From the NCBI GenBank assembly GCA_031266025.1, contig JAISBV010000105.1, positions 5,986-69,985 on the forward strand: DNA of 64,000 nt, written 5' to 3'. The DNA comes from Eubacteriales Family XIII. Incertae Sedis bacterium (GTDB lineage: Bacteria; Bacillota; Clostridia; Peptostreptococcales; Anaerovoracaceae). The notes beneath the pieces are model-generated. The model made no database searches. It was not told the DNA's origin and saw only the letters and a list, made by a program, of their open reading frames with translations. Position numbers and translations under genes: made by a program. This document shows positions 3,107 to 44,165 of the stretch, in pieces; positions within the stretch are counted from its first letter, which is position 1, and each line of letters begins with the position of its first letter.

Positions 3107-6100
3107 GTGGTCAGAAGGTTGTACGTCGAGAAGAAAGAGGGTTTTGACACGGAAGCGCGCTCCTTGCGGCGCGCGCTTACGGAAAACCTGCATATCGCGG
3201 GTATAGAGAGACTCAGGGTTCTGAACCGCTACGACATCGAAAATATAGACGACGAAACATACGAAACCGCGAAACGGGGCGTTTTTTCCGAGCCGGCTGC
3301 GGATGTGGTTTACGAAGAAGACGCGCCGTTGGGCGGCGCGTTTGTCTTGCGCGTTGAATACCTGCCCGGTCAATACGACCAAAGGGCCGATTCCGCCGCG
3401 CATTGTATAAGGCTGATCAACGCGGCCGCCTCGCCTACGGTTCGTTTCGCGCGCGTAATAGCCATATACGGCAAGCTTTCTCATATGGAGACAGAAGCCG
3501 TGAGGCGCTTTGCCGTAAATCCCGTCGATTCTCGCGAGGCTGCGTCGGAGAAGCCCGATACGCTCGTTCTCAGTCTCGAATCGCCGCCGCCCGTGGCCGT
3601 TGTCGGCGGGTTCGTCGCGTTTACGGCCGATGAGCTTGAGATGTTCAGACAGAACGGGGATTACGCGATGAGCGCAGAGGACATGCTGTTCACGCAGCGC
3701 TATTTCGCGGATACCGAGCGCAGGGATCCGACCGTGACGGAGCTCAAGGTCATAGACACGTACTGGTCAGATCATTGCAGACATACTACGTTCAACGCAA
3801 GCTTCGCGAACGTCGGTTTCGACGACGGGCCTTTCGCCGATTTGGTTCGGAAGGCCTTTAATAAGTATTTGAACGTCAGGAACGAGGTGTACGGGGAAGG
3901 AAGCGAGCGTCCCGTGAGTCTTATGGATATCGCCGTTATCTGCGCGAAATACCTGAAAGGCCGAGACTTGCTCCCCGACCTTGACGAGTCGGATGAAGTC
4001 AACGCGTGCAGCATTCGCGTAAAGGCGGACAATGACGGCGCCGAAGAGGATTGGCTCGTCATGTTCAAGAACGAAACGCACAACCACCCGACGGAGATAG
4101 AACCGTTCGGCGGCGCCGCCACCTGTCTCGGCGGTGCGATTCGCGATCCTCTGTCCGGGCGCGCCTACGTATATCAGGCGATGCGCGTCACGGGAAGCGG
4201 CGATCCGCGCGCGGACATAGGCGATACCTTGCCGGGCAAGTTGCCGCAGCTGCAGATCACGCGTGACGCCGCCAAGGGATACAGCTCATACGGAAATCAA
4301 ATAGGCCTTTCCACAGGGCTTGTCGCCGAGATGTACGACGACGGCTATATCGCAAAAAGGCTTGAGATCGGCGCGGTGATAGGCGCGGCGCCCGCGGCCC
4401 ACGTCAGGCGCGGAGTTCCGGCGCCGGGCGACGTGATCCTGCTTGTCGGGGGAAGAACCGGCCGCGACGGCTGCGGCGGCGCAACGGGTTCTTCCAAGGA
4501 GCATACGGAAGAATCTCTCTCCGCTTGCGGCGCGGAGGTTCAAAAGGGAAATCCGCCCGCGGAAAGGGATATACAGCGGTTGTTTCGCCGTAAGGACGCG
4601 GCGCATTTGATCAAGCGCTGCAACGATTTCGGCGCGGGCGGCGTATCCGTGGCCGTAGGCGAGCTTGCGGCCGGTATAGACGTCGATCTTGACGCTGTTC
4701 CCAAGAAATATGAGGGTCTTGACGGCACGGAGCTGGCCATTTCGGAATCGCAGGAGCGTATGGCGGTTCTTGTCACAGGCGCGGACGCGGCGCGCTTCAT
4801 CGAACTTTCGGAAGAGGAAAACCTCGAGGCCGCCGTCATAGCGAGGGTGACGGATACGGGGCGCTTTCGCATGTATTGGCGCGGCGACGCTATACTCGAT
4901 CTGCGGCGTGATTTTTTGGACAGCGACGGCGTGCGGCGGAGTGTGGATGTATTCGTCGAAAACAGGAACGCCGGCGCGTATTTTGACGCGGATGGAGGCC
5001 GCAGACCGGCCGATTTTCTTGACGATCTGAACTGTTGCGGTCAGCGGGGTTTGACGGAATGTTTCGACAGCACGATAGGCGCGGGAACGGTGCTTATGCC
5101 GCTCGGCGGACTGTGGCAGGAAAGTCCCGCCTTGGGCATGGCCGCCAAACTGCCTCTTACTTCGGGCGAAACGCTCACGACCACGCTGATGACTTTCGGC
5201 TGCGACGTTAAGTTATCCTTGGCGAGTCCTTTTCACGGCGCGCTGTACGCCGTCGTGGATTCTGTTACAAAGATCGTCGCTATGGGCGGCGACCGCAAGG
5301 GCGTCAGGCTGAGCTTTCAAGAATACTTTGAAAAATTAGGCCAAAACCCCAAACGTTGGGGCAAACCCTTTTCCGCGCTGCTCGGCGCGCTCGAAGCGCA
5401 GCTTGCGCTCGAAATACCCGCGATAGGCGGGAAGGACAGCATGTCGGGCAGCTTTATGAACCTTGACGCGCCGCCGACGTTTGTCTCGTTCGCAGTGGGC
5501 GTGACGAGCGCGGAACGGGTGCTGTCGCCCGAGTTCAAAAAGCCCGGCAGCAATCTCGTACTTGTCGACGCGGAGCGCGACGCGGAAATGATGATAGACT
5601 TTGCGCAATACAGGCGCAACATGGATGTTGTAACGGCCTTGACCGCAGAGGGGCGGATACTGTCCGCTTCCGTGATCGGCTGCGGCGGCATATTCATCAC
5701 CGCCGTAAAGATGGCGGCCGGCAATCGCATCGGGGCGCGTCTTTTGAACGTCACGGACGCTGAATTGCGCTTGCCGCGCTATGGCGCCCTGATCCTCGAA
5801 ATAGACGAAGAATTCGACGCGGACGCGTTGCTTGGCGGCGTTCTTTACAGGCGCATAGGCGTAACGACGGCGCTTGCGGAGATATCCGCCGCGCATACCG
5901 CCGATGCGGATGTACCCGCGCTCAGGATGGGATTCGGCGAGATATTTTCAAGATGGGAAAGCCCGCTCGCGGACGTATTTCCTATGACGACGCCCGAACA
6001 ACCTGCGGAGAGCCTTAAAACGCTCAGATTCGATAAACGTTCATCCGTGCGTCCCGCCGTTCGCGCCGCGAGACCGCGCGTGCTGATTCCCGTGTTTCCG

Positions 6101-6868
6101 GGTACGAATTGCGAAGCGGACTCAAAGAAGGCTTTTGAAAAGGCCGGCGCGTCTGTTTCTCTTCATATTTTGCGAAATCTGACGCCGGAGATACTCGAAG
6201 TCTCGATACGCGAGCTTGCGCGCGGCATAGGTGAAAGCCAGATCGTCATGATACCGGGCGGTTTCAGCGGCGGCGACGAACCGGACGGTTCGGCCAAATT
6301 TATAACGGCCGTTTTCCGCAATCCCGCAGTTAAAGAGGCCGTGGCGGAGCTGCTCGAGCGGCGCGGCGGCCTTATGCTCGGCATATGCAACGGATTTCAA
6401 GCCCTCGTGAAGCTTGGGCTTCTGCCATTCGGTGAGATACGGGACGGCGCGGACGACAGTCCGACGTTGACATACAACAGCATAGGCAGACACGTTTCGC
6501 GCATGGTGCGGACGCGCGTGGCTTCGACGCTCTCCCCGTGGCTTTTCGGAGCGGCGCCCGGAGACGTACACACACTGCCCGTTTCACACGGCGAAGGGCG
6601 TTTCACGGCGCCCGAATCATTGCTTCGCGACATGGCTGATAAAGGACAAATAGCGACTCAGTATGTGGATTTCGACGGGAAGCCCACGAGCGATTTTCGT
6701 TTCAATCCGAACAATTCCGTCATGGCCATAGAGGGCGTATGCTCGCCGGACGGCAGGATACTCGGCAAAATGGCGCATTCGGAACGAATAGGGCCGCATC
6801 TGTACAAAAATGTGCCCGGCGATTATGATCAGAAATTGTTTGTGTCGGGCGTAGCGTATTTTGAGTGA
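3107..6868 (+). CDS. purL: Phosphoribosylformylglycinamidine (FGAM) synthase, single-chain large form
   Basis: 1253 aa. AIR-synthase-like repeats (DHCRHTTF, NHPTEIEPFGGAATCLGGAIRD). C-terminal glutaminase with GICNGFQAL and HGEGRF. Confidence 0.95.
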   Translation: MVRRLYVEKKEGFDTEARSLRRALTENLHIAGIERLRVLNRYDIENIDDETYETAKRGVFSEPAADVVYEEDAPLGGAFVLRVEYLPGQYDQRADSAAHCIRLINAAASPTVRFARVIAIYGKLSHMETEAVRRFAVNPVDSREAASEKPDTLVLSLESPPPVAVVGGFVAFTADELEMFRQNGDYAMSAEDMLFTQRYFADTERRDPTVTELKVIDTYWSDHCRHTTFNASFANVGFDDGPFADLVRKAFNKYLNVRNEVYGEGSERPVSLMDIAVICAKYLKGRDLLPDLDESDEVNACSIRVKADNDGAEEDWLVMFKNETHNHPTEIEPFGGAATCLGGAIRDPLSGRAYVYQAMRVTGSGDPRADIGDTLPGKLPQLQITRDAAKGYSSYGNQIGLSTGLVAEMYDDGYIAKRLEIGAVIGAAPAAHVRRGVPAPGDVILLVGGRTGRDGCGGATGSSKEHTEESLSACGAEVQKGNPPAERDIQRLFRRKDAAHLIKRCNDFGAGGVSVAVGELAAGIDVDLDAVPKKYEGLDGTELAISESQERMAVLVTGADAARFIELSEEENLEAAVIARVTDTGRFRMYWRGDAILDLRRDFLDSDGVRRSVDVFVENRNAGAYFDADGGRRPADFLDDLNCCGQRGLTECFDSTIGAGTVLMPLGGLWQESPALGMAAKLPLTSGETLTTTLMTFGCDVKLSLASPFHGALYAVVDSVTKIVAMGGDRKGVRLSFQEYFEKLGQNPKRWGKPFSALLGALEAQLALEIPAIGGKDSMSGSFMNLDAPPTFVSFAVGVTSAERVLSPEFKKPGSNLVLVDAERDAEMMIDFAQYRRNMDVVTALTAEGRILSASVIGCGGIFITAVKMAAGNRIGARLLNVTDAELRLPRYGALILEIDEEFDADALLGGVLYRRIGVTTALAEISAAHTADADVPALRMGFGEIFSRWESPLADVFPMTTPEQPAESLKTLRFDKRSSVRPAVRAARPRVLIPVFPGTNCEADSKKAFEKAGASVSLHILRNLTPEILEVSIRELARGIGESQIVMIPGGFSGGDEPDGSAKFITAVFRNPAVKEAVAELLERRGGLMLGICNGFQALVKLGLLPFGEIRDGADDSPTLTYNSIGRHVSRMVRTRVASTLSPWLFGAAPGDVHTLPVSHGEGRFTAPESLLRDMADKGQIATQYVDFDGKPTSDFRFNPNNSVMAIEGVCSPDGRILGKMAHSERIGPHLYKNVPGDYDQKLFVSGVAYFE

Positions 6869-32229: not shown

Positions 32230-33046
32230 GACAATACGCCCCGATGAGGGAAATATGGGATTTAAGTGTTTGACGGGCAGTCAAATCAAGTTTTTCGGCG
32301 TTATACTGATGGTGTTCGACCATATACACCAGATGTTTCATGTATATGACGTCCCGCTCTGGTTTACGTGCATAGGGCGCTTGGTGGCCCCGATGTTTCT
32401 GTTCATGTGCGCCGAGGGTTTTCATTACACGCGCAGCAGGAGGAAATACATGCTCCTCCTCCTCGCCGGCTTCGAGTTTATGAATGTGGCGTCCCTGTTT
32501 CTTTCCCGCGCGATGCCGAACGAGGACGTCACGCTGATGAACAATATCTTCGGAACCATGCTGCTCTGTACGGTGTACATGGGGCTCACGGATATGCTGA
32601 AAAGCGGCGTAAGCGAAAAAAAGCCCGGCCGTACGGCGCTTTCGATACTGCTGATGCTCGTCCCCATAGCCATAGGCGCGGTTTCCATGGCGATCATGAA
32701 TATGCCGGACTTTTTGGCCAATCCGAACGCGCTGATGATCATGTACATGATACAGTCGGTTCCGAACGTCATGATCGTCGAGGGCGGGCCGACGCTGGTC
32801 GCCACGGGACTGCTGTTCTACATATTCAGGGAAAAGCGATTGATTCAGGTCGCGGTGCTCGTCTTGGCCGGCGTTCTCACGCTGTTCACATTCGGCCCCG
32901 GCGAAGTGCAGTGGATGATGGTCTTCGCCGCGATCCCGATGCTCATGTACAACGGCAAACGCGGAAAGGGGAGCAAGTATTTCTTCTACATCTTCTATCC
33001 GGCGCATATATACATACTGTATACAATCGCGTACCTCATCAAATAG
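32222..33046 (+). CDS. TraX-family membrane protein
   Basis: ATG overlaps the permease stop and lies 8 nt after GAGGAGG. N-terminal LTGSQIKFFGVILMVFDHIHQMF resembles the TraX signature. Polytopic membrane protein. Confidence 0.6.
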   Translation: MNETIRPDEGNMGFKCLTGSQIKFFGVILMVFDHIHQMFHVYDVPLWFTCIGRLVAPMFLFMCAEGFHYTRSRRKYMLLLLAGFEFMNVASLFLSRAMPNEDVTLMNNIFGTMLLCTVYMGLTDMLKSGVSEKKPGRTALSILLMLVPIAIGAVSMAIMNMPDFLANPNALMIMYMIQSVPNVMIVEGGPTLVATGLLFYIFREKRLIQVAVLVLAGVLTLFTFGPGEVQWMMVFAAIPMLMYNGKRGKGSKYFFYIFYPAHIYILYTIAYLIK

Positions 33047-33050
33047 ATGT

Positions 33051-33196
33051 AACCACTCAACCGACCGTTCTTTTTTCCGCATCTCGGCCCCAAATCGTCG
33101 AATTCACTGCTCAACGTACAATTTCGTACGCCTGCGCGGCGAATTCGCCGATTTGAAACCAATCTCCGAAAAAAATCTCCGGTCGGTTAAGTGGTT
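33051..33196. repeat. About 146-bp palindromic MITE/REP-like element, family A variant
   Basis: Termini AACCACTCAACCGACCG / CGGTCGGTTAAGTGGTT. The interior layout parallels copies 1 and 2 (TTTTCCGCATCTCGG..., central ACGTAC..GTACG). Confidence 0.75.
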
Positions 33197-33253
33197 TTTA
33201 TTAACTTTTGTACAATAACCGGATAATTATTATCCGCTCAACCGACCGGGCAA

Positions 33254-33823
33254 CTAAAACGTCAAAAATACCAATTCCGATTCGTCTCTCTCGCGTGAAT
33301 CGTATTCGACGAGATCGCGAATCAGCGGATCGGTGATCAGGCGCTTCCACACGGTGTGCGAGGCGCGTATGAAACTCTCGGACAGTGGATATTTCTCCGA
33401 GATCAGAGGACATTCATACGGCAGATGCTCCATGGGGAACAGTATCATCCTCAGGGCTCCGTCCGCGTCAAAATGCGGCGCGAGCGGGAAGAATCGGCAT
33501 TGGAACGGTCGCATGTTCCTTTTGCACACGGGAGGCGTCTTGCACCTGATGAAATAGACGTCTCCGCGCCATGACGCCGGAAAATCCCCGTCCTCCGCCT
33601 TTGACGAACTCCATTCAAACAGCTTGTCGCGTTTCGCGAACAGCTTCTCCTCTCCCGGCAGCAGGTATATGCCCAGATTAAAGCCCTGCGCGGCCGCGTC
33701 CTCCTCGCCGGCGCAGCAGCAGGCGCTGCCGCACAAAAGACCGCAGTCTCCGTCCGTTGGCGACACCCTGTCGAGCAGCCTGTACGCGGCCGCGAATACG
33801 CTTCTGCGAATTGAACTTTTCAT
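33254..33823 (-). CDS. Cys-rich protein, putative YkgJ/UPF0153-type metal-chelating domain
   Basis: The CGLLCGSACCC cluster resembles the CxxCxxCC motif. Further cysteines appear in FIRCKTPPVCKRNMRPFQCRFFP. Confidence 0.5.
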   Translation of the reverse strand: MKSSIRRSVFAAAYRLLDRVSPTDGDCGLLCGSACCCAGEEDAAAQGFNLGIYLLPGEEKLFAKRDKLFEWSSSKAEDGDFPASWRGDVYFIRCKTPPVCKRNMRPFQCRFFPLAPHFDADGALRMILFPMEHLPYECPLISEKYPLSESFIRASHTVWKRLITDPLIRDLVEYDSRERDESELVFLTF

Positions 33824-33853
33824 GATATGATTGTATCACGAAGACGCGAAAAA

Positions 33854-34078
33854 ATAAACTGCCCTGCAGCAAAACTACGTGGTATTGGAGAGATGGGCAG
33901 TTTGATACGATAGGAAGTATTTGGAGTGGGTTCAATACCCTACGCTATGAATAAGGAAACGTAGCAAGCTATGGGGTATTGAACCCGTTTGCGTAATAAA
34001 CTGCCCTGCAGCAAAACTACGGGGTACGCGTGCCCGGAGCTTGTGAACGGGTACTGAACCCATTTGCGTAATACTGCC
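33854..34078. repeat. Direct-repeat region in a divergent intergenic spacer
   Basis: The 26-bp sequence ATAAACTGCCCTGCAGCAAAACTACG occurs at 33854 and 33996. GAACCC(G/A)TTTGCGTAATA..CTGCC occurs at 33981 and 34057. Internal inverted repeat GGGTTCAATACCC/GGGGTATTGAACCC. Confidence 0.8.
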
Positions 34079-34236
34079 GAGAAATATTGGCGATTTTCGC
34101 GTTGATATTGTTTGCCGCCATAAAAAGTGCTACAATGTCTGTGTCAGCGGACATATTTTGAATGATAATTTTTTACGGATTCAACGCACGCGTGCATTCT
34201 CACGAACGTGAACAATTACAATATAAGGTTAAGATT

Positions 34237-35835
34237 ATGGCAAAAAAGACAATGGTGTTTTTGTTATTCGCTTTGTTTCTGACCGCATGTTCCGGTACGG
34301 TCTTCGCGAGTGACGCCGACAGTGACGACCCCGATCCGTGGGCGACGGAAGCGGTCGAGTACCTGCGTTCATACGAACTGATTCCGGATGAATTGTTTTC
34401 GCAATACACTTTCCCGGTGCGACGTGACGAATTCGCGGCTATGGTCATTTCCGTCTATAATGAAGCCTGTCAAAATTACGCTGTTTTTGATTCCGTCGCG
34501 AACCCGTTTTCCGATACAGTGGACAACAAATACGCGGTTTATATCAAAAAAGCGAATATAACGGGATTTATCACGGGAACCTCAAAAACCTTGTACAGTC
34601 CGCAAAATACGATTACCCGCGAGGACGCAGCGACGATTTTGTATCGAATGATGACCGTGATGTACCCTGACGCGGCAATCCCGTCCGAGGTCAAAATCAC
34701 GGATAAAGACAAAATATCCGCCTACGCCGCAGAGGCCGTCGAATATTGTTTCGGTTTGTCCGTCATGTCGGGCACGGGCGGCGGCGCGTTTTCACCGAAG
34801 GCCATGCTCACACGTCAGGAGACAATGGTGATTCTGTACAATATTTGCCGGCGCTTTGACGTGATAAAAAACGGCCGGGAAAGCGCTGTCACCGCGCCGG
34901 CGTCAGATTCCGGTTGGCGCGTTGGGATAAACGACGACTGTTTGTACATCTTGGTGCAGGCATATCCATTTTTGCTGAACAATGAAGTGGTGGAGTCCTC
35001 ATCCTATCGTCTGATCAAGCTGCCTTTGGACGCCGAACTGCAAGGCCGCGGCGAGGTTATACTGTCTTGGGATCGTATCGACGCCTATGCGATAGATTCG
35101 GATAAAATTTATTTCTGCGACCGCCCGGATGTATATTCCATGGATAAAAACGGCGATAATATTAAAAAAATCCGCGACTTATCCCACTTTATGGACGGAA
35201 GCGACATTGCCACCCTTCACAAGGAAGGGGACTGGCTGTTCATCGGAGCCGGTTCGCGCATTATCAAACTGCGCACAGACGGTACCTGCCCGAGCTATCT
35301 ATCCAAAGGCGATGCCGGGCATTTCTCGGTTTCCGGCCAATTTTTGTACGCTACGGGTCGCGATCCGATGTCCGACGCCTACAGCCTTCGGATTTGGCAG
35401 ATATCGTTTGACGGCGCGCTTTCGCGGATGCTTTATACGTATGAGCGCAAAACCGGAATGAGCTATTCATTCGCGCTCGGCAAGGATAAAGCCTATTTGA
35501 TTATGGATAATTATGACGATATACAGTCAAACGCCATGTTTATCACGATAGATACAAGCGGAAACGACGCGCCGGTTCAAAGAAAAATAGACAAGTCAAT
35601 AGAATTAATGGTATACGGCGAGGATGTTTTCTTGACAGACTACTCTGAAAATATGTTAAATATGAGCAGTCTTTCCGGAAATCCCGATATTCATATACCG
35701 ATGCCCCCCGAGATAAGATACAACATAAGCATGATAGAGGGCGACTATATTCTCATCAGACTCATCCTCGGCTCGGACTACACCCGCTATTATTTTATCT
35801 ATAATTTTAAAACGAACGTCTTCAAAGATATTTAA
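34237..35835 (+). CDS. Lipoprotein with SLH-like repeats and a DUF5050-like beta-propeller
   Basis: Lipobox LFLTAC at the internal ATG 34237. SLH-type blocks (SPQNTITREDAATILYRMM; GGGAFSPKAMLTRQETMVILYN). C-terminal repeats of the type IYFCDRPDVYSMDKNGDNIKKI. Confidence 0.65.
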   Translation: MAKKTMVFLLFALFLTACSGTVFASDADSDDPDPWATEAVEYLRSYELIPDELFSQYTFPVRRDEFAAMVISVYNEACQNYAVFDSVANPFSDTVDNKYAVYIKKANITGFITGTSKTLYSPQNTITREDAATILYRMMTVMYPDAAIPSEVKITDKDKISAYAAEAVEYCFGLSVMSGTGGGAFSPKAMLTRQETMVILYNICRRFDVIKNGRESAVTAPASDSGWRVGINDDCLYILVQAYPFLLNNEVVESSSYRLIKLPLDAELQGRGEVILSWDRIDAYAIDSDKIYFCDRPDVYSMDKNGDNIKKIRDLSHFMDGSDIATLHKEGDWLFIGAGSRIIKLRTDGTCPSYLSKGDAGHFSVSGQFLYATGRDPMSDAYSLRIWQISFDGALSRMLYTYERKTGMSYSFALGKDKAYLIMDNYDDIQSNAMFITIDTSGNDAPVQRKIDKSIELMVYGEDVFLTDYSENMLNMSSLSGNPDIHIPMPPEIRYNISMIEGDYILIRLILGSDYTRYYFIYNFKTNVFKDI

Positions 35836-35978
35836 ACAGCGTTTTAATATTCTTTGCCAAAGAGTTGCAATTGAGATTGCAAAGGATTTTTCGGGTAAAA
35901 AAACAAATCGCCTTGCCGAAAGGTTCGCATATAGCGATAAAAGTACGAATCTTGCTAAAAAAAGGAGTTTATCATATC

Positions 35979-36971
35979 GTGTCACAATTGATTGACAATT
36001 CATCACAAACGTTGGAACAAGCATTGAAAAACACTCTCCCGCAAACGAACAAAGTTGATGTTCTTACTGCCTATTTCTACTTTTCCGGGTTCTCGCTGTT
36101 GGCCGGCGAACTCAAAGACAAACATATCCGCATACTCGTGGGGAAATCCATTGACCCTGACGCTGTTGTCGAACTCAGCGCGGCTATCAAGTCATACCCA
36201 AATGTTGACCTCAATACCTACCAAAACAAAAAATATTACTCCCTGAACCGTTCTCAAAGGAAGAAAGAATACACGGAAAGTTTCATACGCCTGTTTAACA
36301 AGTCATCGTTGTCAGAGTCTTTTGACAGCACGGTGAGCCAAACAATGCAGACGATTTTCGAGAACAAACTGCGTGACGGCACACTTGAAATACGTATGAC
36401 TTCCGAGGACAATCACGCCAAAACCTTTATTCTCACCAACAAGCCGGAGTTCTCCGCGAACGGTGATTCTAAAGGCGCTGTTTTTATGGGTTCGTCTAAT
36501 TTCACATATTCCGGACTGACCGGACAAGGCGAGCTTGACCATCGGTTCAGCGACAATCAAGACTATGATAAGTATCTGCAACATTTTAATAAACTTTGGA
36601 ACGATGCTAACGCCATCGACATACAAACGAGCGGCAGTAACGACGATTTCATCAGAGAAATAGAAACGCGGCTGTGGCTGCACTCAAAGCCTGACCCGTA
36701 TAAGGTGTTTGTGCGGATTTTGCACGAACTGTATTATCAAACAGACGAGACCGACCTTAAAACGCCCGGTTCCATATCCGGCGGTAAGTTTACAAACTTA
36801 CGTTACCAATTGGATGCAATCAGAAGCGGCATAGACTGTATTAACAAGAATAGCAGTAAGGCTCATCGGCAGAATTATGTTCTGTTGGTTTCTCAAAGAG
36901 AAAAAAAGCGCGGATGGTGTTGCTCTGATCCCCGACAAAATATTATCGCAACAAGCCGTAACGGGAAATGA
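35979..36971 (+). CDS. PLD/HKD-nuclease domain fragment. This is the 5' part of a frameshifted PLD-methyltransferase fusion and is probably a pseudogene.
   Basis: GTG behind AAAGGAG. N-terminus SQLIDNSSQTLEQALKN...VDVLTAYFYFSGFSLLAGELKDKHIRILVGKS. HKD motif NHAKTFIL...GSSNFTYSGL. After about 36835 the frame reads junk until the stop. Confidence 0.7.
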   Translation: MSQLIDNSSQTLEQALKNTLPQTNKVDVLTAYFYFSGFSLLAGELKDKHIRILVGKSIDPDAVVELSAAIKSYPNVDLNTYQNKKYYSLNRSQRKKEYTESFIRLFNKSSLSESFDSTVSQTMQTIFENKLRDGTLEIRMTSEDNHAKTFILTNKPEFSANGDSKGAVFMGSSNFTYSGLTGQGELDHRFSDNQDYDKYLQHFNKLWNDANAIDIQTSGSNDDFIREIETRLWLHSKPDPYKVFVRILHELYYQTDETDLKTPGSISGGKFTNLRYQLDAIRSGIDCINKNSSKAHRQNYVLLVSQREKKRGWCCSDPRQNIIATSRNGK

Positions 36972-39120
36972 CACATACTATCACAATGTGCTTGAATCGC
37001 TGTTCTTCGAACTGCTCAACACCAAAGCAAGACGCAGAAAAGACAAATTCAAAAGCGAAGGTTATTCAGAAATTCCATATCTTAACGGCGGCTTATTCAG
37101 TCCGCAAGTAGGCGACCACTACAAATTCAGCCAGATCACGGACAGCGGCGAGTATGGCATTGTTACCGTTCCTGACGACTGGTTTAAGTCACTGTTCGGT
37201 GTTTTGGAAAGTTACAGCTTTACGGTAGATGAGAACACTGCCTATGATGTCGAACTTTCAATTGATCCTGAAATGCTGGGGCGCATATTTGAAAACCTGC
37301 TTGCTGAAATAAATCCTGAAACAGGTGAGAGCGCGAAAAAAAGCACAGGCAGTTTCTATACCCCACGCGATATCGTTGATTATATGGTAGACACGAGCCT
37401 GTTTCATTATTTACGAGATAAAACCAAAATCGCGGACGACACGCTGAACGCGCTTATTAGTTACGGAAAAGAAGATGATACCGATTATCCGTTGACTGCC
37501 GGTGAGAATGAGAATATTGTTGACGCTCTGTCAACGTTAACAATAATCGACCCGGCATGCGGTTCCGGCGCGTTCCCAATCGGTATTTTGCAAAAGACAG
37601 TGTATGTTTTACAGCAGGTTGACCCAAACGCCAAACTTTGGGCGGCAAAGCAGTACAGCAGCGTAACGTCTGCGGAATTGAAGCAGGAAATCAAACAGAA
37701 AGAGGAGCGCGGCTTATTTGACTATATCCGTAAGCTCGGAGTTATCCGCGAGTCCATATTTGGCGTGGATATTCAGACTATCGCGACTGAAATAGCTAAA
37801 CTGCGCTGCTTCCTGTCACTCATAGTAGAGGAAAACGTTGAAGACGATGAACCGAATCGCGGCATACAGCCCTTGCCGAATCTTGATTTTAAGTTCATTT
37901 CCGCCAATTCTCTCGTGCGTTTGGAGGACAAATCAGAATCAACAGGCCAAATGTCGATTTTTGAGGATATTCAGCATATCGACGAGTTAAAACGTATTCG
38001 TGATGAATATTTCACCGCCGACGCCGATGAACGTATTGAACTTCGTCAAGAATTTGATAGTACTCAAAAGGAAATGTTGATGAAGACAATTCAAAATTAC
38101 GGGAAAACAGCAAGCAACAGATATTCTTTGCTTTATTCGTGGAAACCTTTTGAAAACGAGTCTACAACGTGGTTTGACCCGGAGTGGATGTTTGGAACAA
38201 ATAATTTTGACATTGTTATCGCGAATCCTCCTTATATTCACTTGGAGCATATCAAGGAGCAGTCTGCGTATTACAGGACACTCAATTTCAGTGTTTATGA
38301 GGCTCGCGGTGACATCTACGCATTGTTTTATGAGAAGGGCGTGCAACTTCTGAAAGATAATGGTTTCCTTTGCTACATTACCTCTAATAAGTGGATGCGC
38401 GCGGCATACGGAAAATCGCTCCGCCGCTTCTTTGCAGACTTTACAAACCCGATACAACTAATCGACTTTGCCGGACAGCAGATTTTTGACGCTACCGTCG
38501 ATACGAATATACTTTTGCTGTCAAAGTCAGCCAATCAACAGGCAACCAACGCCGTAATTGTCAAAGACAATGACAGTATATCGAATATGCGCGTTTATGT
38601 TAAGCAAAACAGCGTAACAATTCCGTTTACCGCATCCGAGAGTTGGACTATACTCTCGCCGATCGAGCAGAGTATCAAGCGCAAAATCGAGGCAGTCGGC
38701 ACTCCGTTGAAAGATTGGGATGTAAAAATTAACTACGGAATCAAGACAGGCTGCAATGAAGCATTTATTGTTGATGGTGCCACCCGCGCCCGTCTTATAG
38801 CTGCCGATCCAAAGAGTGCAGAGATTATACGACCGATTTTGCGGGGCAAGGATATTAAGCGGTATGGGTATGACTTCAATGGTAAGTATCTTATTGCCTT
38901 ATTCCCGTCACAGAATTATGACATTGGTAACTACTCCGCCGTTAAAGAATATCTTCTTTCTGCTGAATGGTCAGATAATGTGCCATACGGACATGGCATG
39001 GAAAGATTGGAACAAACAGGCAAAAAATATACTATTGACGGAATAAGCTTTACAGCACGCAAAAAGACAGGTAACAAGTGGTTTGAAACGCAAGACCAAA
39101 TAAGTTATTGGGTCGTATAA
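36877..39120 (+). CDS. Eco57I/MmeI-type gamma-class N6-adenine DNA methyltransferase with a TaqI-like target-recognition domain. This is the 3' part of the frameshifted fusion and its C-terminus appears truncated.
   Basis: The frame is open from 35 nt upstream (TVLTRIAVRLIGRIMFCWFLKEKK). IPYLNGGLF, GSFYTPRDIV, motif I DPACGSGAF, motif IV IANPPYI. TaqI_C-like block GIKTGCNEAFIV...ILRGKDIKRY. Ends right after WFETQDQISYW. Confidence 0.85.
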   Translation: MFCWFLKEKKSADGVALIPDKILSQQAVTGNDTYYHNVLESLFFELLNTKARRRKDKFKSEGYSEIPYLNGGLFSPQVGDHYKFSQITDSGEYGIVTVPDDWFKSLFGVLESYSFTVDENTAYDVELSIDPEMLGRIFENLLAEINPETGESAKKSTGSFYTPRDIVDYMVDTSLFHYLRDKTKIADDTLNALISYGKEDDTDYPLTAGENENIVDALSTLTIIDPACGSGAFPIGILQKTVYVLQQVDPNAKLWAAKQYSSVTSAELKQEIKQKEERGLFDYIRKLGVIRESIFGVDIQTIATEIAKLRCFLSLIVEENVEDDEPNRGIQPLPNLDFKFISANSLVRLEDKSESTGQMSIFEDIQHIDELKRIRDEYFTADADERIELRQEFDSTQKEMLMKTIQNYGKTASNRYSLLYSWKPFENESTTWFDPEWMFGTNNFDIVIANPPYIHLEHIKEQSAYYRTLNFSVYEARGDIYALFYEKGVQLLKDNGFLCYITSNKWMRAAYGKSLRRFFADFTNPIQLIDFAGQQIFDATVDTNILLLSKSANQQATNAVIVKDNDSISNMRVYVKQNSVTIPFTASESWTILSPIEQSIKRKIEAVGTPLKDWDVKINYGIKTGCNEAFIVDGATRARLIAADPKSAEIIRPILRGKDIKRYGYDFNGKYLIALFPSQNYDIGNYSAVKEYLLSAEWSDNVPYGHGMERLEQTGKKYTIDGISFTARKKTGNKWFETQDQISYWVV

Positions 39121-39179
39121 GTTCGGCAGTTAAATTGCGTTCGCCGCCATCGCAGATCGAAGTATCAATTGTTGGAGGA

Positions 39180-39791
39180 TTATTGCGTTGAAATAGATTC
39201 GCGTTTAATGAACGCGTCAACTGTCATGCGGTCAACTTTCAAAATCCTTGCTATTTGCGTCTTGGGAACCTCGTGCAAAAGCAAGTCGCGTATGAAATCC
39301 TCTTTACCGGACAGCTTAACTTTTGACGATTTACTGCCTATAGGTCTACCTAATACAACGCCTTCGGCACGTTTACGAGCGAGTGCTTCTTTGGTTCGTT
39401 GGCTGATCAGATTGCGCTCTATTTCGGCGGACAAACCGAATGCGAAAGCAAGAACCTTGCTCTGTATGTCATCGCCCAACCGATAGTTATCTTTTATCGT
39501 CCACACGCGGCAGTTTTTGTTCATACAAATATTCAAGATGTCCATAATCATAAACAGCGTGCGGCCTAAACGTGATAGCTCGGCGCATATAATCAGGTCT
39601 CCGTTTTTAACCTTGCTGAGCAGTTCACCGAGTTTACGTTTGTTGTAATTCTTGGTGCCGCTGATTGTTTCCTCAATCCATCCGTTTATGTCGATGCCGT
39701 TGTTCTCCGCGAATTTATTGATTTCGTACCGTTGGTTCTCAACCGTCTGCTTGTCGCTGCTGACGCGAATATAACCGTAAATCATTTGCAT
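39180..39791 (-). CDS. Small serine recombinase (resolvase/invertase family)
   Basis: YGYIRVSSDKQ nucleophile motif, ELSRLGR, and a C-terminal HTH (KTQIARILKVDRMTVDAFI). 203 aa. Confidence 0.9.
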   Translation of the reverse strand: MQMIYGYIRVSSDKQTVENQRYEINKFAENNGIDINGWIEETISGTKNYNKRKLGELLSKVKNGDLIICAELSRLGRTLFMIMDILNICMNKNCRVWTIKDNYRLGDDIQSKVLAFAFGLSAEIERNLISQRTKEALARKRAEGVVLGRPIGSKSSKVKLSGKEDFIRDLLLHEVPKTQIARILKVDRMTVDAFIKRESISTQ

Positions 39792-39807
39792 AACCTCCCA
39801 TTATAAA

Positions 39808-39831
39808 TTAATGATTGGATTTTATCATTAA
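39808..39831. promoter_or_regulatory. Perfect palindrome TTAATGAT-N8-ATCATTAA upstream of the recombinase gene. Candidate recombinase binding or crossover site, or an auto-operator.
   Basis: Read directly. Begins 17 bp upstream of the recombinase start codon. Confidence 0.4.
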
Positions 39832-39863
39832 GGCGAAAGAAAGCAAAGAGTAATTATCGCATC

Positions 39864-39893
39864 TTTACAGCGCAACGCCAAGTGAAGTATAAT
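39864..39893 (+). promoter_or_regulatory. SigA-type promoter for the kinase operon
   Basis: TTTACA, an 18-nt spacer, then TATAAT (39888-39893). Confidence 0.5.
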
Positions 39894-39955
39894 GTGATTA
39901 CTGAAAGCAAGGCAAAACCGATCTGACGCTTACGGGAGATTTCAAGGAGATTTCA

Positions 39956-40795
39956 ATGGATCAAATCAAAGATTTGAAAATACAGGACATATCTCACTTC
40001 GATGTTGAAATAAGCGCGCTGTCGGGTAAAAGACGCAAGGTATATGTCAAAGACAAGCACAAGAAATACATGCTCAAGTTGGCCGACATAAAACAGAACG
40101 GAGAGCAAATACCCTCGCATATATCGGAATATACATCCTGCAAGTTGATTGATGCACTGGGCTATTCTGTACAAGAGGTCTGTTTGGTTACATGGCATGA
40201 AAATGAGGCGGTCTTGATAGAGCTTTTTGACGAGCAGATTGTAACATTCACCGGATTTGGGGATTCAACCCTTGAAAGCGGCAATTTGGAATACGATTTG
40301 GACAGTATGGCGGATGGGTTGGTAAGCGCAAAATTCGCGGAAAACCCCGTATCTTTCTTATGGAATACATTTATTCTCGACAGTTTTGTGTGCAACTTGG
40401 ACAGGCATCCGAATAACTGGGGATTTTTCAGAAAAGGCGACGTTTATTCGCCGGCGCCGCTGTTTGATTTGGGAAATTCTTTGTTCTCTGTAAACGCGAA
40501 CAAATTAAATAAAAATACGGATGTAAATAAATTGATAGAGTTGTACGGTAAATCGGCAATACTTTACAGGGGCGAGCGCTTGGGATTCAGAGATGTATTG
40601 CGCGCGCGCGATAATGAACATTTGCAAAAAGCGTTGGCAGTCTTTAAGACGAAATTAAACGCTGCGGACACAAAGAAAGAATTGCGCGATATTTTGGCAA
40701 ATGTTTTGTTGCTAAATAAAGAATACGATAATTATTGTGAGTTCTTGGAGCAGATGATTGACGCGCAGACGAGGTTTTTCGAGGAGACGCTATGA
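39956..40795 (+). CDS. HipA_C-like serine/threonine kinase consisting of the kinase core only
   Basis: Gly-rich loop ALSGKRRKVYV, lysine block KYMLK, catalytic NLDRHPNNWGF (D149), Mg-binding SPAPLFDLGNS (D171). 279 aa. Confidence 0.8.
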   Translation: MDQIKDLKIQDISHFDVEISALSGKRRKVYVKDKHKKYMLKLADIKQNGEQIPSHISEYTSCKLIDALGYSVQEVCLVTWHENEAVLIELFDEQIVTFTGFGDSTLESGNLEYDLDSMADGLVSAKFAENPVSFLWNTFILDSFVCNLDRHPNNWGFFRKGDVYSPAPLFDLGNSLFSVNANKLNKNTDVNKLIELYGKSAILYRGERLGFRDVLRARDNEHLQKALAVFKTKLNAADTKKELRDILANVLLLNKEYDNYCEFLEQMIDAQTRFFEETL

Positions 40796-41199
40796 AAACC
40801 AAACCTACTGAATTAAAGAGGGACACTTTGTATATAGGTCTTTATACGAACGGTAAGATTTTCAGAATAGGAACATTTTCTTTGCTTCTTGAAAGCAACG
40901 GCAAACACATATATGAATTCGATATCGACGAAGAACGTTACAATGAAGCTATGAAGATGACGGACAGGATAATACCGGGTTTCAATCCAAAGAACGGATG
41001 GAAACAACGGCACGACAAAGAGATGCAATTTGTATACGAACGTACATTTCATCCGCAGCGTCAGGATATGGAAGATATTTTGAAGCCTTACAGTATGACG
41101 CCCAAAGAATACAATAAATGGAATTTTCTTAAAAAGAGCAAAGGAAAATGTTATCAAGATGATTGGCGTTTGACAGATGTTTTTGAGGAAACCTATTGA
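40792..41199 (+). CDS. Small protein coupled to the kinase, possibly a HipS-like / HipA N-terminal-subdomain homologue
   Basis: ATGA overlap with the kinase stop. LYIGLYTNGKIFRIGTFSLLLESNGKHIYEFDIDEERY and HPQRQDMEDILKPYSMTPKEYNKWNFLKKSKGKCYQDDWRL resemble HipA N-terminal segments at motif level only. Confidence 0.45.
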   Translation: MKTKPTELKRDTLYIGLYTNGKIFRIGTFSLLLESNGKHIYEFDIDEERYNEAMKMTDRIIPGFNPKNGWKQRHDKEMQFVYERTFHPQRQDMEDILKPYSMTPKEYNKWNFLKKSKGKCYQDDWRLTDVFEETY

Positions 41200-41427
41200 T
41201 ACGTCGTTCAATTGTCTTAAGGGCAAGCCGGATCTCACTTGAGGTGGGAAATATTCCCGGCGAAGTTATATTGGACTTTTATTGTCTGTTAAGATATAAT
41301 ACATCTTAGTTGTAGGAACAACAACATAAGCCTTGTTTTATGTTCGGGAGCCAAATTCGAAACGCGTCTCGGCCGCCGCGGCGGCGGTAAAAATTAATCT
41401 TAAAAAGCAGAAAGGAACAGTCGCAAA

Positions 41428-42303
41428 ATGAAAAGAGTAGGTTGGATCGGGGTCGGTAAAATGGGCAGTCGTATGTCGCGCAGACTTTTGGAGCAAGGCT
41501 ATACTCTGAATGTCTATGATGTTGATCCGACGAATATCGCGGCGCTCAAAGAGAGCGGCGCGGGCGTCGCCGGAAGTCCCGCGGAGCTTGCAAAAATGTC
41601 GGACTATGTGTTCTCCATGATTCCGAATTCCGCCGTTTTAAAAACGGTATTGGAGCAGGAGAACGGGCTTTTGCAAGTGAGGGGCGGCTATACGCTGATA
41701 GATATGAGCACGCTCGACCCGGCAAGTTCCTTATTGTTCGCGGAAAAATTGTCCGAGGCCGGTATCGGATATCTGCGCGCGCCCGTGACAGGAAGTACGG
41801 AATACGCCGAAAAAGGCACGCTTGGCGTCATGGTTTCGGGAGACGAAGCCCTCTTTAACGAAATTTTACCGCTGTTCAAAATCTTGGGGAACAGACAGAC
41901 ATACCTTGGAGACGCGGAACAGGCGCGGTATATGAAGATTTCCGTTAACCTTATGGTAGGCGTCACCATGCAGATGCTGGCCGAAGCGCTTGTTTTGGGT
42001 GAGAAAGCGGGAATAAAGTGGGACGATTTGATAGATATGATTTCGGACAGCGCCGCAGCGGCGCCCATAGTCAAATTTAAGGCCGATGCGCTCAAAAATA
42101 GAGATTTTTCGCCTATGTCCACGGCGCGCGTAGCGGAAAAAGATTTGCAATTCGCGCTCGATATAGCCAAGGATGAGGGTATATCGCTGCCGCTTACGGC
42201 TTTGACGACGCAGTATTACGCGGCGATGCGTTTGCACGGGCTCGGCGATATCGACTACAGCGGGATTTTACTCCTTAATGAAAAATTCAACAAAATTGAA
42301 TGA
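41428..42303 (+). CDS. NAD(P)-dependent beta-hydroxyacid dehydrogenase (3-hydroxyisobutyrate / 6-phosphogluconate dehydrogenase-like family)
   Basis: Rossmann motif VGWIGVGKMGSRM. Family-typical C-terminal helical domain. Confidence 0.8.
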   Translation: MKRVGWIGVGKMGSRMSRRLLEQGYTLNVYDVDPTNIAALKESGAGVAGSPAELAKMSDYVFSMIPNSAVLKTVLEQENGLLQVRGGYTLIDMSTLDPASSLLFAEKLSEAGIGYLRAPVTGSTEYAEKGTLGVMVSGDEALFNEILPLFKILGNRQTYLGDAEQARYMKISVNLMVGVTMQMLAEALVLGEKAGIKWDDLIDMISDSAAAAPIVKFKADALKNRDFSPMSTARVAEKDLQFALDIAKDEGISLPLTALTTQYYAAMRLHGLGDIDYSGILLLNEKFNKIE

Positions 42304-42388
42304 CGGCGCCGGTTCTTAATTTGACCGTTTACCGCCTATTCATGGAAACAACAGTTTTTGAGATGCTGCATATGGTAAAAAGGAGACG

Positions 42389-42489
42389 TTACTGCTCAAA
42401 GGTTCAATCAAGACTACTCAAACGCCGCGATTGTTTTGTTCGAATCAGGTTCCGAGTCCGGGCAAAAAAGGCGTGACGTTTGAGTAGTT
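42389..42489. repeat. Family A repeat, internally deleted copy with its conserved outer motif
   Basis: TTACTGCTCAAAGGTTCAATCAAGAC followed by TACTCAAACGCC...GACGTTTGAGTAGTT. About 65 bp of the central part are missing relative to 29205-29348. Confidence 0.8.
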
Positions 42490-42503
42490 ACAAGGAGACA
42501 AGT

Positions 42504-44165
42504 ATGATGTTTAAAAAATTCGTTTCCGCGCTGCTTGCGGGCGGTCTTATCATCACATCGGCGTTCGCCGCGCTTCCCGCGTCGGCAAAGACTATTCCCG
42601 CCGGGCAGACTGTCGGTACGGTGCTGTTTTACGTCACGAACAGCGGCGGAGAAGAAATCCTCGCGTCGCATATAGCCGTGTCGGAGATGGAAGCGGACAT
42701 GAAGGCCGGGAAGATCAGCACACAGAATCACAACTATTCGCTGTTAGACCGCTTCGTCACGACACTTCATCAGGAGGCTCAGGGCTTCACCGTGCCGGAG
42801 TTCATTGATTACGCGAAGTCAAAGTCGTCGCTCGCCGAGATTCGCGCGCTGCCCCTGTCGCTGTCCGGCAATTCCGTTATACGTTTCTGGGAGATAGACC
42901 AGACGGGCTATGACGACTTGGATACCTATACGTATGACGATCTGTACGGCGTTAAGCGTTACAATTTCCCACTGTTGTATGAATATTGGGATTACGCCAA
43001 ACAAGACTACGGTGATCCTGCCGGCAAGCTGACGCACGAACAGGTTATAGACCGCATATTCGAAAGCGGAGAGCCTGAGATATTCATACTTTCCGTTCGC
43101 GGTTTCTCTCAACGCTATATGGTGACGGACGAGAAGTACGGCGTTGATTACAATATGGAAAATTATTGGCAGAGCAAAGGAGTTATGGATAACGAGCGCA
43201 CGGTTCGCATCATGAAGCCCATGACGAGGGAAGAGCTTTACAACAAGACGCCTACGGCGTCGGATACCCGTTACTGGGTGGCGAATATATGTCTCAATCA
43301 GGAAAACGCGCCGGATTTGGCGTCGCTCGGCGCTGTGGCGGCCCCGACGGCCGTGATGACCGAGGCGGGCGACAATTATTACATTCGCTTTTCCTGCGCG
43401 ACGAACGAAGCGACTATACTGTACAATCACAATTTTATTTCGCCAAGCTATACGCCCACGTCGCTGTACGGCGGCAGCGCGGTGACTGTTCCCAAGGAAC
43501 ATTTCCCGAGCGGCGAGGTGACCATGACGGCCCGCGCCGTTAAGGACGGTTACAGCGATGCGGGAGTCGTGACGCTGAAGCTTAAATCTGCGGGCGTCGA
43601 ACAGAATCCCGATACGTCGGTGGCCTACACGGATGTTACCGACGGCGCGTGGTACGCGGACGCGGTGGCTTATGTGATGGGCAAAGGATTGTTCGACGTC
43701 AAACGCGCGGGCACATTCGGAACCGGCGATCCCATGACGCGCGCGATGCTCGCTTCGGCGCTGTATCGACTCGAAGGCTCGCCGGAAGTGACGGAGTACG
43801 CGGACTTTCCCGATATCACGCGCGGTACGCCGTTGTCGGCTGCCGTGTCGTGGGCATACAGCGCGGGTGTGGTAAGCGGCATGAGCGACGGTTCGTTCTT
43901 GCCGGACGGAGAGATAACGCGCGAACAGATCGCGGCGATGCTGTATCGCTACGCTAATTACAAGGGCGCGGATACAAGCGTTAAAGGCGATCTCTCGGCG
44001 TTTACCGACGCCGCCGGAATCTCGGGCTACGCGACGGAAGCCGTAGTCTGGGCGAACGGCGCAAAACTCATAAACGGCATGGGCGACGGTACGCTTGCGC
44101 CGCAGGGCAAATCCACGCGCGCGCAAGTAGCGCAGGTGCTCTTCAATTACGGAGACGCGCGATGA
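42504..44165 (+). CDS. Secreted SLH-anchored surface protein of unknown function
   Basis: ATG behind AAGGAG. Signal peptide FKKFVSALLAGGLIITSAFAALPASA. Three C-terminal SLH repeats. Confidence 0.75.
   Translation: MMFKKFVSALLAGGLIITSAFAALPASAKTIPAGQTVGTVLFYVTNSGGEEILASHIAVSEMEADMKAGKISTQNHNYSLLDRFVTTLHQEAQGFTVPEFIDYAKSKSSLAEIRALPLSLSGNSVIRFWEIDQTGYDDLDTYTYDDLYGVKRYNFPLLYEYWDYAKQDYGDPAGKLTHEQVIDRIFESGEPEIFILSVRGFSQRYMVTDEKYGVDYNMENYWQSKGVMDNERTVRIMKPMTREELYNKTPTASDTRYWVANICLNQENAPDLASLGAVAAPTAVMTEAGDNYYIRFSCATNEATILYNHNFISPSYTPTSLYGGSAVTVPKEHFPSGEVTMTARAVKDGYSDAGVVTLKLKSAGVEQNPDTSVAYTDVTDGAWYADAVAYVMGKGLFDVKRAGTFGTGDPMTRAMLASALYRLEGSPEVTEYADFPDITRGTPLSAAVSWAYSAGVVSGMSDGSFLPDGEITREQIAAMLYRYANYKGADTSVKGDLSAFTDAAGISGYATEAVVWANGAKLINGMGDGTLAPQGKSTRAQVAQVLFNYGDAR

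Follow-up and report, generated by a model that had tools for sequence, protein, structure and literature searches.

What controls a HipA-like kinase that lacks the N-terminal subdomain of HipA, when the gene that overlaps its 3′ end encodes a small protein of no recognized domain family? The question is raised by two adjacent genes of Eubacteriales Family XIII. Incertae Sedis bacterium (GenBank assembly GCA_031266025.1, contig JAISBV010000105.1), found in a stretch of 64,000 nucleotides (nt; contig positions 5,986–69,985, forward strand) that we refer to as the window and whose numbering is used throughout. The upstream gene encodes a 279-residue kinase, here called A, and the downstream gene a 135-residue protein, here called B. 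A first-pass annotation of the window had read the pair as a permuted bipartite Hip-type module, with B standing for the missing N-terminal part of HipA. Our analysis agrees with the first half of this description, in that the module is bipartite, kinase-first, free of HipB and built on a kinase of the HipA superfamily, but finds B as a part of HipA unsupported. The reading that we favor, at a probability of roughly 60%, is that A is a growth-arresting kinase and B its inhibitor or autoinhibitory subunit, and that the cassette serves as a toxin-antitoxin (TA) or abortive-infection module within a defense islet.

Results

A Is a Minimal Kinase of the HipA Superfamily

The landmarks of the HipA_C domain that had been noted in A are all present (SGKRRK at residues 23–28, KYMLK at 37–41, NLDRHPNNWGF at 147–157 and FDLGNS at 170–175), and the Pfam model HipA_C (PF07804) matches the protein with 48.8 bits (E = 8.7e-13) against a gathering cut-off of 30.5. 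The ATP-binding lysine, K41, lies within the KYMLK motif, while the catalytic residues D149, H151 and N154 and the Mg-binding residue D171 are invariant across eight homologues. That the kinase begins without the HipA N terminus also proved correct. When PDB sequences were searched with a profile built from A and seven homologues, profile position 14 aligned with approximately residue 167 of S. oneidensis HipA, and some 150 N-terminal HipA residues were left unmatched.

The same profile matched CtkA of H. pylori (3akj) over nearly its full length with an E-value of 2e-28, whereas S. oneidensis HipA was found with only 7.8e-5. An AlphaFold2 (AF2) model of A (predicted local distance difference test score, pLDDT, 76; predicted template modeling score, pTM, 0.79) was compared with known structures using Foldseek, which returned CtkA with template modeling (TM) scores of 0.73–0.75, HipA with 0.5–0.57 and HipT from Legionella with 0.55–0.59, all at a probability of 1.00. 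The predicted fold is that of the HipA/HipT/CtkA kinases, with CtkA as the closest member, followed by HipA and HipT. CtkA (JHP0940; 3AKJ, 3AKK and 3AKL) shares with A the same minimal HipA-like core at ~21%–24% identity and is its closest relative of solved structure, differing in its length of 325 residues. A is therefore probably an active, minimal kinase on the CtkA-like side of the HipA superfamily. The protein is 100% identical to one existing named protein entry.

B Is Coupled to the Kinase and Conserved with It

The start codon of B (40792–40794) overlaps the stop codon of the kinase gene (40793–40795) as ATGA, exactly as described in the first-pass annotation, and a stop/start overlap is found in every homologous locus in which the two genes are paired. 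The B family is rare. A word-indexed search retrieved six relatives and a HMMER profile search of 1.84 billion representative sequences retrieved 13, all of 100–170 residues except for one repeat protein of 5333 residues. There was a single match among 185,579 GTDB species genomes, and neither tblastn nor pattern searches gave a match in the INPHARED phages, the PLSDB plasmids or IMG/VR. Pfam and NCBIfam models assigned no domain to B.

A survey of the homologous loci, which the first-pass annotation had proposed as a check on the kinase-first order, shows that a kinase gene followed by a B gene recurs in at least six divergent lineages (the window together with L001, which is an independent assembly of the same sequence; L002/L003; L004/L005; L015, in which the contig end truncates the kinase; the divergent pair of L006; and L008). 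The kinases of the four closest lineages are 37%–43% identical to A and their B proteins 46%–68% identical to B, the pairs of L006 and L008 being more divergent. In L008 (462–2073), a divergent HipA-like kinase of 273 residues is followed by an overlapping gene for a 271-residue protein, P0033, in which a B-like domain is joined to DUF2442 and to a domain of the helix-turn-helix (HTH) type, HTH_17. Among the loci surveyed, no kinase of the clade to which A belongs was seen without a B domain. The genes that flank the cassette differ from locus to locus (sugar-acid genes, an ATP synthase operon, GntR/PfkB genes) and the invertase gene that lies beside it in the window is never adjacent elsewhere, which argues that the cassette is an autonomous two-gene unit.

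Several of these loci carry the two components in altered form. In a metagenome-assembled genome (MAG) of Clostridiales (Nc350_bin154; JAISWZ010000388.1), locus L007 (2186–3568) consists of a single open reading frame (ORF) of 460 residues, in which the kinase is connected to B through a Pro/Ala-rich linker of ~45 residues. A B ORF in L014 (3–494) likewise remains open upstream, through a similar repeat-like, Pro/Asp-rich linker, as far as the contig end. In L016 (1998–2675), an intact B, 59% identical to that of the window, is preceded only by remnants of a kinase, ~24 N-terminal and ~47 C-terminal residues (profile positions 2–25 and 220–266), the catalytic core having been lost by deletion. 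L006 (JGI 3300042616) contains, in addition to its divergent kinase and a 155-residue B-like protein (3173–4392), an orphan B gene (6001–6402) that lies ~1.6 kb downstream of the pair without any kinase remnant and encodes a protein 83% identical to the B of the window. This orphan may act as an anti-kinase decoy carried by a mobile element, or it may simply be a remnant. L014 and L015 were also considered as orphan copies of B and rejected, since the upstream ORF reaches the contig end in both. The conserved gene order, the natural fusion and the patterns of decay together bear out the view that the kinase has a real and conserved partner in the product of the small ORF.

The L006 contig is rich in small ORFs, including DUF4869, cpYpsA and a few PHROG families.

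B Shows No Detectable Similarity to HipS

The motif-level resemblance between B and N-terminal segments of HipA, which had led to the first-pass identification of B, did not exceed chance in any of the statistical tests that we ran, and B as HipS or HipA N-subdomain 1 found no support in Pfam, in profile searches of the PDB, in hhalign, in reciprocal searches with hidden Markov models (HMMs) or in Foldseek. The Couple_hipA and HipA_N models did not match any of 22 members of the B family even at E ≤ 10, and a profile of 22 B sequences, searched against all PDB sequences, retrieved no HipS or HipA chain at E ≤ 10; its matches to a ribosomal RNA methyltransferase and to MMP9 were discarded as chance (E > 0.1). 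Comparison of B with an alignment of HipA N-subdomain 1 in hhalign gave probabilities of 0.9% (P = 0.06) and 0.25% (P = 0.24), and the HipA-N HMM, run with its filters off against 28 B-family proteins, scored at most 3.1 bits. A Foldseek search with the AF2 model of B (pLDDT 96.3; pTM 0.88) against a PDB library that included HipS and HipA chains returned a best E-value of 0.8 and TM scores of at most 0.26, with no Hip chain among the top 50, and a search of PDB and BFVD returned nothing below an E-value of 0.15. As a positive control, the HipA-N profile recovered each of the three HipS proteins of solved structure, matching them from end to end (Legionella, 7VKB_B, E = 5.6e-14; Haemophilus HI_0666, 7CZO_A, 1.9e-9; E. 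coli O127, 7AB3_B, 2e-8), which indicates that the approach is sensitive enough to detect a HipS.

The published HipS structure comprises four N-terminal strands, three helices that form the interface with HipT, and a fifth strand. The model of B predicts strands at residues 7–19, 22–34, 39–45 and 71–74, helices at 79–82, 93–100 and 109–116 and a strand at 125–128, so that the order of secondary-structure elements agrees with that of HipS, plus one extra helix in B (47–54); this order is the only feature that matches. In addition, the two insignificant segments aligned by hhalign are collinear (residues 25–44 of B with 14–31 of HipA, and 93–116 of B with 74–95 of HipA). The order of elements and the collinearity of the segments are compatible with a very remote homology, yet they are not evidence for it.

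The β-hairpin part of the B profile (positions 18–49) matches ten repeated stretches in the 5333-residue protein, P0024 (E = 1e-6), which suggests a generic motif and not one peculiar to Hip proteins.

A and B Belong to a Class of Kinase-First Modules without HipB

Short kinases of 279–321 residues that lack N-subdomain 1, are followed by putative antitoxins and have no HipB have been described previously, in modules designated hipJS (with HipS), hipIN (with a HipS-like domain and HIRAN) and hipMP (with a resolvase-like protein) and in the single-chain HipL (kinase, HipS-like domain and HIRAN) (clade XI of Gerdes et al., 2021; PMC8262856). The A–B pair has the layout of hipJS and hipIN, a likeness that is drawn from gene layout and kinase size: the kinase is short, its Gly-rich loop lies near the N terminus, the partner is encoded downstream and HipB is absent. 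The fused form in L007 resembles HipL. In contrast to hipJS and hipIN, in which the partner is HipS or HipS-like, with or without HIRAN, B lacks HIRAN, and no similarity between it and HipS could be detected.

Both proteins of the cassette also match models in PADLOC. A matches PDC-M03A (2e-18) and B matches PDC-M03B (1.8e-6), the two genes being adjacent and on the same strand, and 17 of 22 B-family members match PDC-M03B as well (best 1.7e-10). B covers only positions ~28–118 of the 232–250 in PDC-M03B, i.e., the N-terminal ~40%, and the C-terminal half of PDC-M03B is absent here. The DUF2442 and HTH region of P0033 was considered as the counterpart of this C-terminal half and rejected, as the C terminus of P0033 fails to match. 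PDC-M03 is a phage defense candidate from the PDC set, which was selected by "guilt-by-embedding" in restriction-modification (RM), BREX and DISARM loci (Payne et al., bioRxiv 10.1101/2024.01.29.577857). The reversed, kinase-first order without HipB, to which the first-pass annotation had drawn attention, is indeed present in the window; it is not new, because both Gerdes et al. (2021) and PDC-M03 already contain it. The pair is a further, domain-minimal member of this kinase-first, HipB-less class, probably of the PDC-M03/clade-XI type. Our literature search found no experimental paper on kinase-first Hip modules.

With the HipBST systems of E. coli O127:H6, Legionella and Haemophilus, the pair shares a short kinase without N-subdomain 1 and a separate protein of ~100–135 residues that plausibly controls it. 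It does not follow the hipB, hipS, hipT order, however, as the kinase gene comes first and there is no HTH gene; in addition, B is not a Couple_hipA protein and A is nearer to CtkA than to HipT. More distant CtkA-like kinases (22%–28% identical to A), encoded on plasmids and on one phage contig, have no B domain and are accompanied by small upstream ORFs. In L009, L010 and L011 (Selenomonas plasmid NZ_CP017043.1, 2745–4704), a small overlapping ORF precedes the plasmid-borne CtkA-like kinase and no B follows it. The kinase of the Selenomonas plasmid is followed by a "recombinase family protein", reminiscent of hipMP, and a CtkA-like kinase of Campylobacter fetus by a Fic protein.

Discussion

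A Probable Kinase Toxin and Its Putative Inhibitor

The kinases of this clade were never seen without B, B survives alone or beside a kinase whose core is deleted, the two genes are coupled, and in one lineage B is fused to an HTH domain. Taken together, these patterns argue for a toxin with a dedicated neutralizing partner. The layout of the fused protein in L008, with a B domain followed by DUF2442 and HTH_17, is the usual plan of an antitoxin that combines a toxin-binding with a DNA-binding domain, and in the HipS–HipT pair a small protein likewise neutralizes a short Hip kinase. The cassette is most likely a mobile two-gene kinase-toxin unit that resides in a small, low-GC defense islet.

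Toxicity, inhibition by B, target and trigger are elements that we infer, and they would combine as follows. A and B would be made from one transcript, with B translated by coupling to A, and B would bind the kinase and restrain it, either in the manner of an antitoxin or as an autoinhibitory subunit. Removal or displacement of B, as might follow phage infection or the disappearance of the element, would free the kinase to phosphorylate an essential cellular protein and so arrest growth. HipA is known to target GltX, and HipT to target TrpS. By analogy, the target of A may be an aminoacyl-tRNA synthetase or another component of translation.

Several observations weigh against this model. The Gly-rich loop of A (residues 23–28) is atypical, with SGKRRK in place of the (S/A)GAxPK of its relatives, and the independent loci number only about eight, a small sample. 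As no similarity of B to HipS or to any known antitoxin could be detected, its proposed inhibitory role is read from genomic patterns only. The covalent fusion in L007 does not suit a classical, labile antitoxin and would be equally natural for a domain with a sensory or regulatory role. Autoregulation is left unaccounted for, as B lacks a DNA-binding domain and there is no HTH gene. Taken together, the cis fusion and the missing DNA-binding domain are at least as easily reconciled with a regulator of the sensor type as with a labile antitoxin. Finally, CtkA, the closest relative of solved structure, is described as a secreted, cell-translocating, pro-inflammatory kinase and not as a toxin.

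Origin of B and Alternative Roles

Where B comes from is a question of descent, and an ancestry shared with HipS would be compatible with the toxin-inhibitor model. B might be a highly diverged but true homologue of HipS and HipA N-subdomain 1 that docks on the N-lobe of the kinase, at the place that this lid occupies in HipA, in which case the pair would be a permuted split HipA. This is suggested by the predicted order of strands and helices, by the collinear hhalign segments, by the "HipS-like" label that Gerdes et al. (2021) gave to the partner domains found downstream in hipIN and hipL, and by the match of B to PDC-M03B, which may correspond to HipN. We nevertheless regard it as unlikely: Couple_hipA, PDB-profile, hhalign, reciprocal-HMM and Foldseek searches all fail to back HipS homology although the control profile detects the solved HipS proteins with ease, a β-meander followed by helices is a common topology, and, by the account of those who gave the label, the HipS/HipS-like alignment has low bootstrap support (Gerdes et al., 2021; PMC8262856). 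Somewhat easier to entertain, if still tentative, is the idea that B is a structurally new, modular kinase-control domain unrelated to HipS, acting as a trigger-sensing inhibitor of CtkA-like kinases in abortive infection, so that "HipS-like" would be the wrong label for this group. The domain occurs as a free protein, at the C terminus of a kinase, together with DUF2442 and HTH, and as the N-terminal half of PDC-M03B.

Alternatively, the kinase may depend on B for its work, with B as a positive regulator, a sensor or an adaptor for substrates, for instance an on-switch that senses phage. A fusion in cis by way of a flexible linker, such as occurs naturally here, is typical of regulatory and sensor domains, the combination of B-like domains with varied C-terminal modules (DUF2442 and HTH in L008, a 110-residue half in PDC-M03B) suggests an adaptor, and between loci B is better conserved than the kinase (46%–52% versus 40%–43%). 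An activator is useless on its own, however, whereas the retention of B beside the deleted kinase of L016 and as an orphan in L006 is what would be expected of an antitoxin, and the strict co-occurrence of kinase and B fits the neutralization of a toxin; we therefore consider an activating role improbable. Even harder to sustain is the proposal that A is no toxin at all but a signaling or exported kinase like CtkA, with B as an accessory protein and the nearby RM gene a coincidence. It takes its appeal from what is described for CtkA, but we saw neither a signal peptide nor secretion genes nearby, the cassette is found in unrelated housekeeping contexts across genomes, like a mobile TA or defense cassette, and both the match to PDC-M03 and the decay pattern of L016 speak against it. 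Relative to these alternatives, the toxin-inhibitor model remains our preferred explanation.

Kinase-first Hip modules (hipJS, hipIN, hipL and PDC-M03) have been catalogued. The locus described here, with its relatives, offers a compact experimental handle, comprising a 279-residue kinase, a 135-residue partner, a natural fusion, a kinase-deletion allele and orphan partners. Should the partner turn out to inhibit or to sense without being related to HipS, this would represent a new mode of control for HipA-family kinases and would correct a habit of annotation; should the cassette simply be another TA module, the finding would be an ordinary one, adding one more accessory defense or addiction item to those of a Clostridiales MAG. 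The most useful points are the negative HipS result with its working positive control, the affinity of A to CtkA, and the natural fusion, deletion and orphan alleles.

Genomic Context

The A–B pair is situated at the right-hand end of a low-GC islet (~35600–41300) with a GC content of 40%–45%, compared with 50%–61% in its flanks and in the genome otherwise. The islet holds a type IIG RM gene, an invertase gene and the kinase–B pair, and its low GC content together with these genes suggests a horizontally acquired defense islet. Housekeeping genes restart at 41428 with a 3-hydroxyisobutyrate-dehydrogenase-like gene. The features of the islet are listed in Table 1.

Table 1. Positions of the A–B Cassette, Its Expression Signals and the Neighboring Genes in the Window
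Feature	Position	Strand	Description
Kinase A ORF	39956–40795	+	279 residues; HipA-superfamily core kinase, CtkA-like
Partner B ORF	40792–41199	+	135 residues; translationally coupled; N-terminal half of PDC-M03B matched
Shine-Dalgarno sequence of B, GAGGAG	40781–40786	+	within the 3′-terminal part of the kinase gene; 5 nt ahead of ATG; read from sequence
11-bp tandem duplication, GGAGATTTCAA ×2	39935–39956	+	perfect; ribosome-binding site and start region of the kinase gene
Promoter-like site, TTTACA, 18-nt spacer, TATAAT	39864–39893	+	putative; sigma-70-type consensus scan, 11/12 matches
PLD-like nuclease ORF	35865–36971	+	part of the type IIG RM gene
Eco57I/N6-methylase ORF	36877–39120	+	part of the type IIG RM gene
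Serine invertase	39180–39791	−	"master DNA invertase Mpi" family (NF009949, 2e-100); divergent from the kinase gene

The predicted promoter lies upstream of the kinase gene, in the divergent intergenic region, which spans 164 bp. Further downstream, the perfect 11-bp tandem duplication of GGAGATTTCAA that had been reported at the start of the kinase gene is exact, and its proximal copy provides the Shine-Dalgarno sequence of the kinase (GGAG, 6 nt ahead of ATG). It is one of only four distinct perfect tandem duplications with a unit of at least 9 nt in the 64-kb window, as against ~0.2 per window in block shuffles, which indicates a real slippage-type event. The duplication is present in the independent assembly of the same sequence and is absent upstream of the homologous kinases in the loci compared; beyond the supply of a Shine-Dalgarno sequence, we assign no role to it.

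As the first-pass annotation had it, no HTH gene flanks the pair and the upstream neighbor is a divergent serine recombinase. This Mpi-type invertase was considered as a part of the module, either through an invertible promoter or as a "HipP"-like resolvase antitoxin, and was rejected on two grounds: no convincing inverted repeats flank the promoter, and a recombinase is adjacent to the cassette in no homologous locus. No convincing inverted repeats for an invertible segment were found anywhere in 33000–43000. A weak pair of 15-nt repeats (39155–39169 and 41195–41209; 87% complementary) exactly brackets the invertase, kinase and B genes and is within chance expectation.

The type IIG RM gene appears to be split by a frameshift, its PLD-like and methylase ORFs lying in different frames with an overlap of 95 nt. 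The two best type IIG profiles are matched by the methylase ORF only as far as ~949 of 1110 or ~1004 of 1148 positions, and 60 nt separate the end of this ORF from the invertase gene. A pseudogene, a frameshift from assembly or phase variation at the locus could each explain the split. Beyond the islet, the stretch that separates the dehydrogenase gene from the ORF after it contains a 26-nt inverted repeat (42413–42488; 81% complementary, with a 24-nt loop).

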